DNA from: Escherichia coli O127:H6 str. E2348/69
Lineage (GTDB): Bacteria; Pseudomonadota; Gammaproteobacteria; Enterobacterales; Enterobacteriaceae
NCBI RefSeq assembly: GCF_000026545.1
Contig: NC_011601.1
DNA: 64,000 nt
Direction: 5' to 3' (one strand)
In this document: positions 431-894 of the stretch, piece after piece
Layout: the number at the start of each line of letters is the position of its first letter
Numbering within the stretch: the stretch's first letter is position 1
Made by a program: the position numbers and the translations under genes
Notes under the pieces: generated by a model
What the model saw: only the letters and a program-made list of their open reading frames with translations
Databases searched by the model: none
What the model was told of the DNA's origin: nothing

Positions 431-526
431 TCAAATAAACCAGCCAAATCTCATAGAGATAAGAGTAAACAAACCAACAGCAGCAAAGACATTTATCAGT
501 ACTACAGTTCTACTGGAAACATTCAT
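431..526 (-). CDS. yncL: small membrane protein YncL (31 aa)
   Basis: Not in ORF track (<60 aa). Minus-strand reading gives MNVSSRTVVLINVFAAVGLFTLISMRFGWFI*, one hydrophobic helix, matching YncL as recalled. Coordinates from manual counting, +/-1. Confidence 0.6.
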   Translation of the reverse strand: MNVSSRTVVLINVFAAVGLFTLISMRFGWFI

Positions 527-720
527 TTTTGCCACCTTTTATCATTGCCCCTATGTGTATAGTACGGGTTAAGAAAATCCGCAATAATACTCATTCTGAA
601 GATGGATAAGGGCAAGTTGCTGTTTGATGATTTTTTCTTTAACTGGTGAAAAAACTTGATGCACGTCAAAAAATGACGCATATTTGCGCGCGTTTTATTC
701 ATCTGGCTGGACGCCCGTAC

Positions 721-894
721 ATGTCTCTCTATCAACACATGCTTGTTTTTTATGCGGTTATGGCAGCAATCGCATTTCTTATCACCTGGTTTCTTTCTCA
801 CGATAAGAAACGCATCCGTTTCTTAAGCGCCTTTCTGGTGGGGGCAACATGGCCGATGAGTTTCCCGGTGGCGCTGTTGTTTTCTCTGTTTTAA
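721..894 (+). CDS. ortT: orphan toxin OrtT (GhoT-like small membrane toxin, 57 aa)
   Basis: Internal Met of ORF 646..894; MSLYQHMLVFYAVMAAIAFLITWFLSHDKKRIRFLSAFLVGATWPMSFPVALLFSLF matches YdcX/OrtT. Confidence 0.75.
   Translation: MSLYQHMLVFYAVMAAIAFLITWFLSHDKKRIRFLSAFLVGATWPMSFPVALLFSLF

Follow-up and report, generated by a model that had tools for sequence, protein, structure and literature searches.

The DNA analysed here is a 64,000-nucleotide stretch of the chromosome of Escherichia coli O127:H6 str. E2348/69 (contig NC_011601.1; hereafter the window), and within its first kilobase two very small genes lie back to back. The gene yncL occupies 431..526 on the minus strand, with its ATG at 526..524 and its stop codon at 433..431, and encodes 31 amino acids (aa); ortT, also called ydcX, occupies 721..894 on the plus strand and encodes 57 aa. 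The genes are divergent and are separated by a 194-bp intergenic region. Over its first 2.5 kb the window has 100% identity to the E. coli O127:H6 E2348/69 chromosome, and the RefSeq annotation of that identical sequence was used (locus coordinates are window coordinates plus 2701). Of the 5426 complete E. coli genomes, 5415 contain the region. Very likely, yncL and ortT are two real, separately transcribed and already characterised genes for very small inner-membrane proteins. A sequence-only reading of the window had named both genes and had proposed these same coordinates and start codons; it is correct but ordinary, since both are already known.

The comparison drew on OrtT loci from 80 species, one locus from each, in Escherichia, Salmonella, Citrobacter, Enterobacter, Kosakonia, Lelliottia, Leclercia, Cedecea, Buttiauxella, Pantoea and Mixta. 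The yncL comparison used 28 loci, all of them reached via ortT, and diversity at codon positions was calculated from 27 yncL and 81 ortT sequences.

The identity of both proteins is clear. OrtT matches the Pfam family PF10753 (Toxin_GhoT_OrtT) with an E value of 8.3e-28 and 96.9 bits, where the gathering score is 22.1, and the match is full-length, residues 4-57 covering all 55 profile positions (1-55). The protein is 100% identical to OrtT of E. coli K-12 and 63% identical, without gaps, to K-12 GhoT, which bears out the description of OrtT as GhoT-like in the sequence-only reading. By hydropathy it has two hydrophobic segments around a basic loop, HDKKRIR, and F38, which is needed for full OrtT toxicity (PMC4344625), is present. 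YncL matches the NCBIfam equivalog NF000537 (E value 1.8e-20; 72.5 bits against a cut-off of 35), with residues 1-30 on profile positions 1-30 of 30. Its grand average of hydropathy (GRAVY) is 1.39, and it has the profile of a single-pass small membrane protein with one hydrophobic helix.

Both genes are easily missed or misdrawn by automatic lists of open reading frames (ORFs), as had been claimed. The default list omits yncL because its cut-off is 60 aa; the gene surfaces only when the cut-off is lowered, as a 34-aa ORF at 431..535 with a GTG start. Likewise, ortT is listed only within an 82-aa ORF at 646..894, also with a GTG start. The comparison across species nonetheless argues strongly for translation of yncL from ATG 526 and of ortT from ATG 721, the starts given by RefSeq. 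In K-12 U00096.3 these two codons correspond to positions 1,517,194 (yncL) and 1,517,389 (ortT). An ATG equivalent to 526 is present in all 28 yncL loci, where the frame runs for 30-31 codons, and every one of those loci has an AGGTGG or GAGG motif 5-8 nt before it. In this strain AAGGTGG (532..538, minus strand) is the yncL ribosome-binding site, with 5 nt between it and the ATG. For ortT, 80 of 80 loci have an ATG corresponding to 721, and in an alignment of homologues whose starts had been called differently, the invariant columns begin exactly at that Met. The ribosome-binding site of ortT is a weak one, GGA at 709..711 (plus strand), 9 nt before the ATG; Escherichia, Citrobacter and Salmonella all have GGA or GGAT there. 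Averaged over sequence pairs, diversity at codon positions 1, 2 and 3 is 0.108, 0.065 and 0.344 for yncL and 0.218, 0.061 and 0.503 for ortT, a coding signal well above chance. Because position 3 is far more diverse than positions 1 and 2, both genes appear to be under purifying selection in their annotated frames.

In a multi-species alignment, the spacer between the two genes holds two conserved footprints with an unalignable stretch between them. The footprint on the yncL side contains a predicted promoter at 556..584 (minus strand), with a -35 element TTGCGG (584..579), a 17-nt spacer, a -10 element TATACA (561..556) and a C at -13. TATAGT (558..563, read on the plus strand) and the TTG of the -35 element are invariant in 14 genera or species. 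A C at -13 is a feature of sigma-S promoters. We infer from these hexamers that yncL is read from a sigma-S-type promoter, with transcription starting near 549-550. A Salmonella yncL-lacZ fusion is sigma-S dependent (PMC5437024), and a peak for RpoS holoenzyme from systematic evolution of ligands by exponential enrichment (SELEX) lies between yncL and ydcX (PMC5493296).

The footprint on the ortT side consists of the palindrome TTGATGCACGTCAA (656..669), followed 8-9 nt later by GCATATTGCGCGCG. A predicted ortT promoter lies here at 656..692 on the plus strand, with a -35 element TTGATG (656..661), a 17-nt spacer, a -10 element CATATT (679..684) and a discriminator TGCGCGCG (685..692). The element GCATATTGCG is at least 90% conserved and stands 8-9 nt past the palindrome in 79 of 79 anchored ortT loci. 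It is plausible that ortT is read from this sigma-70-type promoter, with a predicted start near 691-693. The region 646..720 (plus strand) is non-coding and would hold the promoter and the 5' untranslated region (UTR) of ortT. Neither the yncL nor the ortT promoter was reported by a consensus promoter scan, because both fall under its threshold of 9 of 12 positions. Two terminator-like sites at ortT were considered and set aside. One, at 752..775 (plus strand) inside ortT, is regarded as chance; the other, at 693..676 (minus strand), is taken to be the conserved promoter element GCATATTTGCGCGCG, as its stem is 4-5 bp and shows no covariation. Neither the 5' region of ortT (690..760) nor the spacer between ortT and ydcY folded more strongly than shuffled controls.

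The palindrome at 656..669 matches the binding consensus of the regulator FNR, TTGAT-N4-ATCAA, at 9 of 10 positions, overlapping the predicted -35 element and spacer of ortT. It lies 61-67 nt upstream of the ortT ATG in 78 of the 80 species, matching the consensus at all 10 positions in 35 of them, at 9 in 27 and at 8 in 16, and its TTGAT..ATCAA lies in a footprint of at least 90% identity. The number of FNR-consensus matches in the window is near chance (6 found, 3.45 expected), and the support for this one comes from its conservation across species. The other 9/10 matches in the window are at 5624, 8645, 9323, 53359 and 56402.

Binding of FNR at this place in vivo is published. Grainger et al. 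reported a peak at ydcX by chromatin immunoprecipitation on microarrays (ChIP-chip) and named the motif (PMC1802558 Table 2). Myers et al. found the peak in all of their data sets by chromatin immunoprecipitation with sequencing (ChIP-seq), and in their tables the target, yncL or ydcX, is entered as 'indistinguishable' and no transcription start is known (PMC3688515 Tables S5, S6, S9). The site itself is thus not new. Since it is also present in species that have no yncL, it would belong to ortT rather than to yncL, and conservation argues for assigning the published peak to ortT.

The direction of control is a less certain matter. The centre of the site is about 29 bp upstream of the inferred ortT start, and the -10 element CATATT follows 9 nt past the palindrome, a position suited to repression rather than to activation from -41.5. 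Under anaerobic stress from nitrate-derived nitric oxide (NO), ydcX rose 11.85-fold together with cyoABCD and sdh, and the authors credit FNR inactivation for some of the changes seen under NO stress (PMC5320621). This induction of ydcX is in line with FNR repression. We put repression of ortT by FNR at a little short of an even chance. That the 'missing antitoxin' of OrtT is transcriptional, in the form of an FNR operator over the -35 element across the Enterobacterales, is a suggestion we offer tentatively.

The alternative that survives best is that FNR activates transcription from this site, or that the site serves yncL. Where an FNR site overlaps a -35 region, it is mostly a class II activator site, and Myers et al. 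left the target gene of their peak unassigned (PMC3688515). Against activation, centring at -41.5 would require a -10-like hexamer 22 nt downstream of the palindrome and no conserved hexamer is found there, so that the class II architecture was set aside; in addition, ydcX rises under the very conditions in which NO should inactivate FNR. Against a role for yncL, about 112 nt separate the site from the inferred start of yncL, and species without yncL still have the site. We consider this alternative unlikely.

Repression of ortT by FNR would complement what the locus lacks. The sequence-only reading had described OrtT as a toxin without a cognate antitoxin, and our searches agree with it: a K-12 GhoS query gave no tblastn match better than an E value of 2.6 in the whole 64-kb window, and no GhoS was found within 3 kb of ortT in any of the 80 species. 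Experimentally, OrtT was not neutralised by YdcY, by GhoS, by flanking RNA or by a genomic library (PMC4344625). The label 'orphan' thus fits the evidence, which is an experimental negative from a single study together with the absence of GhoS here.

The genes downstream of ortT offer no obvious partner either. ydcY, ydcZ and mnaT follow ortT only in Escherichia among the 80 loci. Similar sequence downstream of ortT is common to 61 of the 80 loci. In Salmonella (L009 3219..5363), ortT is followed by a convergent gene for a 714-aa putative virulence factor (PF10139, SrfC-like), and in Enterobacter (L043 4053..6158) by a comparable convergent ORF of 701 aa. Because the downstream genes differ or are convergent, ortT has no conserved co-directional partner gene, and the cluster shared by the 61 loci was rejected as a partner of OrtT, being the convergent SrfC-type virulence-factor gene. 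In the window, a sigma-70-like promoter-like site, TTGACG-16-TATCAT (910..937; 10 of 12 positions), stands before ydcY, as would be expected if ortT and ydcY are transcribed separately.

A partner could instead lie upstream. On this view, yncL and ortT form a cryptic functional pair in which YncL modulates or neutralises OrtT in the membrane, and OrtT is no orphan. Five genera (Escherichia, Salmonella, Citrobacter, Intestinirhabdus and Klebsiella) keep the two genes divergent at a spacing of about 195 nt, the 'UTR' insert used in the neutralisation experiments begins within the 5' end of yncL, and intact YncL was never deliberately co-expressed with OrtT (PMC4344625). However, about 50 of the 80 ortT-bearing species have no yncL within 3 kb and still keep the ortT promoter, the two genes have different promoter types, and the genomic-library screen gave no OrtT antitoxin (PMC4344625). 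Since YncL by itself depolarises the membrane and gives no protection (PMC12542507), we rate such a pairing as very unlikely.

We also weighed other starts for each gene. YncL might be a 34-aa protein starting at GTG 535 (535..533), as some older annotations have it; that codon is in frame with yncL in this strain and was the annotated start in Salmonella 14028 (PMC5437024). This GTG forms the centre of AAGGTGG, the conserved ribosome-binding site only 5 nt from the ATG; a Salmonella study likewise places it inside the ribosome-binding site and the start at the ATG (PMC5437024). It is out of frame with the yncL ATG in loci L004, L014 and L017, a TAA separates the two codons in L006, and the NF000537 model covers residues 1-30 of the 31-aa form. 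A start at GTG 535 is highly improbable.

A longer OrtT, with an N-terminal cytoplasmic extension, would have 82 aa if translated from GTG 646 or 73 aa from ATG 673, both of which are in frame. The ortT frame is open from 643, public gene calls of the family range from 53 to 97 aa and commonly use upstream starts that give 60-97 aa, and the extension 'MTHICARF' is mostly kept within Escherichia. The extension is not conserved beyond close relatives, however; in 8 of the 80 loci, each from a different species, a TAA stands directly 5' of the ortT ATG, and many others, including those of two Escherichia species, have no upstream in-frame ATG, GTG or TTG. No ribosome-binding site is present in the sequence before 646 or 673, and in the 57-aa protein the Pfam match starts at residue 4. 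What is kept of the extension is explained by the promoter, because the conserved 'THI' codons fall on GCATATT, the conserved -10 element. Of the two upstream starts, GTG 646 precedes the conserved promoter and ATG 673 is within it, and with a predicted transcription start at 691-693 both would fall outside the mRNA. We find the longer protein scarcely credible and take ATG 721 to be the start of ortT.

Finally, the two antisense ORFs at this locus have practically no chance of being real overlapping genes. They are 65 codons at 365..562 (plus strand; codon-for-codon in register with yncL) and 92 codons at 523..801 (minus strand; over the intergenic region and opposite the 5' end of ortT). Their length speaks for them, and the frame antisense to yncL is open in many species, but yncL avoids TTA, CTA and TCA codons, which accounts for the open frame. 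Neither ORF has a family match in Pfam or NCBIfam scans, and even among Escherichia loci both shift in length, boundaries and frame. The first is absent or has other boundaries in other species, is most diverse at its own codon position 1 (0.344), and has a mean amino-acid identity of 0.59, against 0.87 for YncL. The second is 55-62 aa long in four of five other Escherichia loci and 102 aa with shifted boundaries in the fifth, ranges from 22 to 147 aa or is absent outside Escherichia, has a stop within the ortT overlap in 44 of 81 sequences, and has a mean identity of 0.50, against 0.77 for OrtT. With substitutions that gather at their own codon position 1 and fit the annotated frames, both look like unconserved by-products of the real genes, and they had been called spurious from the start.

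What the two proteins do is known from earlier work. The K-12 OrtT protein causes membrane damage, a drop in ATP and slower growth, and its gene is induced by stringent-response conditions and by heat shock (PMC4344625). Growth in minimal medium, heat shock and stationary phase all induce YncL, which leads to sublethal depolarisation and nucleoid condensation (PMC12542507); YncL is cleaved and removed by the RseP protease in vivo (PMC10470546). In the model we favour, YncL, with its one helix, and OrtT, with its two, both act by entering the cytoplasmic membrane and reducing its potential. Since OrtT has no partner antitoxin gene, its activity would be limited mainly at the level of expression. 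Under anaerobic conditions, active FNR bound at 656..669 would keep ortT off, and oxygen or nitric oxide would free the gene by destroying the iron-sulfur cluster of FNR.

Several observations weigh against this account. The ribosome-binding site before ATG 721 is weak (GGA), and the ortT promoter agrees with the consensus at only 8 of 12 positions. G+C-rich discriminators are typical of promoters inhibited by guanosine tetraphosphate (ppGpp). The G+C-rich discriminator of ortT is therefore a poor fit to the reported induction under stringent-response conditions (PMC4344625). Transcription starts for yncL or ortT have no entry in the Cappable-seq or SMRT (single-molecule real-time)-Cappable-seq supplements, and our literature search found no publication joining ortT with ribosome profiling. 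As to FNR, no FNR-dependent change in expression was seen at the peak in glucose minimal medium (PMC3688515 Table S9), ydcX is not in the table of differential expression between aerobic and anaerobic growth of the same study (PMC3688515), and the palindrome is degenerate in K. pneumoniae.

The wider neighbourhood has the same gene order as in K-12: patD, yncL, ortT, ydcY, ydcZ, mnaT. By the RefSeq annotation, the 3' end of patD (aminobutyraldehyde dehydrogenase) lies at 1..334 on the plus strand, with a listed ORF at 32..334, and is convergent with yncL. Downstream of ortT are ydcY (980..1213, plus strand; DUF2526, Pfam PF10735 with an E value of 1e-46), ydcZ (1214..1663, minus strand) and mnaT (1660..2178, minus strand). 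Between the patD and yncL stop codons, a perfect 13-bp inverted repeat with a 9-nt loop (374..408) can form on both strands; its arms are 100% complementary, its folding z scores are -2.4 on the plus strand and -3.7 on the minus strand, and a U-tract is absent on both. It is likely a common 3'-end hairpin for the convergent genes, and patD-yncL is among the listed convergent transcriptional overlaps ('excludon') (PMC12288877).

The junction between patD and yncL also varies among strains. About one in five complete E. coli genomes has roughly 1.3 kb inserted between the two genes, encoding a CatB-related O-acetyltransferase; an example is E. coli strain D1 (L084 2687..4106), and the insertion corresponds to window positions near 325-335. 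BLAST placed the region at 6584 places in 5416 E. coli records, and the surplus places are explained by this insertion; duplication of the region was rejected as their source. The insertion spot appears to be a small variable hotspot. Further along, curA and most of mcbR, found between mnaT and pqqU in K-12, are missing from this strain. The gap falls at about 2179..2660 of the window, where only short pseudogene remnants are annotated (about 2359..2582), and 1042 of the 5426 complete E. coli genomes have the same deletion allele as one contiguous sequence. Between yncL and ortT the RefSeq locus-tag numbering leaves out one number, going from RS08565 to RS08575 in L001 and from RS00650 to RS00640 in L084, which suggests that a feature in the spacer was once called and later withdrawn.

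Other variants of the locus are found beyond E. coli. In Enterobacter hormaechei (L043 1864..2757), which has no yncL here, two DUF1971 genes and one DUF1869 gene lie between patD and ortT, divergent from ortT. DUF1971 and DUF1869 correspond to the YeaR and YoaG families, and E. coli YeaR and YoaG are induced by NO and nitrate. The presence of YeaR/YoaG-type genes beside Enterobacter ortT is a curious parallel to the induction of ydcX by NO. In K. pneumoniae (L085 2633..3093, a chromosome-sized record of 5.37 Mb that is labelled as a plasmid), yncL and an OrtT-family gene are divergent with a 194-nt spacer, and the Klebsiella ortT ribosome-binding site is stronger (GGAAGGA). OrtT-family genes are also carried by large Pantoea plasmids of about 0.5 Mb, which account for 78 of the 95 matching plasmid records, and a fitness effect of ydcX has been reported on one large Pantoea plasmid (PMC11467524).

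There are two practical lessons for annotation. Length cut-offs miss small genes such as yncL, and where the longest ORF is taken as a rule, ortT grows to 60-97 aa, as in many public records; comparative evidence alone was enough to fix both starts. The biological increment is modest, in that a strongly bound FNR site with an unassigned target can now be tied to ortT. If FNR also represses ortT, the 'indistinguishable' target of two FNR ChIP studies would be settled in favour of ortT, FNR control would stand in for an antitoxin, and the orphan toxin would have a defined physiological trigger. This would give a plausible account of how a toxin without an antitoxin is held in check.

The closest known system is the K-12 locus itself. 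K-12 OrtT, described by Islam, Benedik and Wood in 2015 (PMC4344625), is the same protein with the same neighbours, and the gaps on either side are equal too (194 bp upstream, 85 bp downstream). In the 701 bp compared, 5 nucleotides differ between the window and K-12, none of which alters OrtT; the sole protein change is V13 for F13 in YncL. This site is naturally variable (V, L, I and F are seen), and we consider the difference to be of no functional note. The K-12 YncL is a small membrane protein of the stress response and is identical to Salmonella STnc1110. Other stress-induced proteins with a single helix, such as YohP, resemble YncL in function only: their overproduction likewise leads to sublethal depolarisation and nucleoid condensation (PMC12542507).

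GhoT, a 57-aa member of PF10753, shares with OrtT the C-terminal motif LSAFLVGxTWPMSxPVALLFSLF and F38. By this analogy OrtT would work like GhoT as a toxin, and toxicity has been demonstrated for the identical K-12 protein. The two differ in their genetic setting, as ghoT is co-transcribed with the antitoxin gene ghoS, and GhoS, which serves GhoT in a type V system, fails to neutralise OrtT (PMC4344625). Because ghoS is absent, the ortT locus is not a type V toxin-antitoxin system. The toxins of type I systems (Hok, TisB, Ibs and Ldr) are likewise small hydrophobic peptides that depolarise the inner membrane. Those systems have an antisense or nearby small RNA as antitoxin; an Rfam scan, which sees only described families, gave no match in 1..2500 even at an E value of 10, and flanking RNA did not protect cells from OrtT (PMC4344625).

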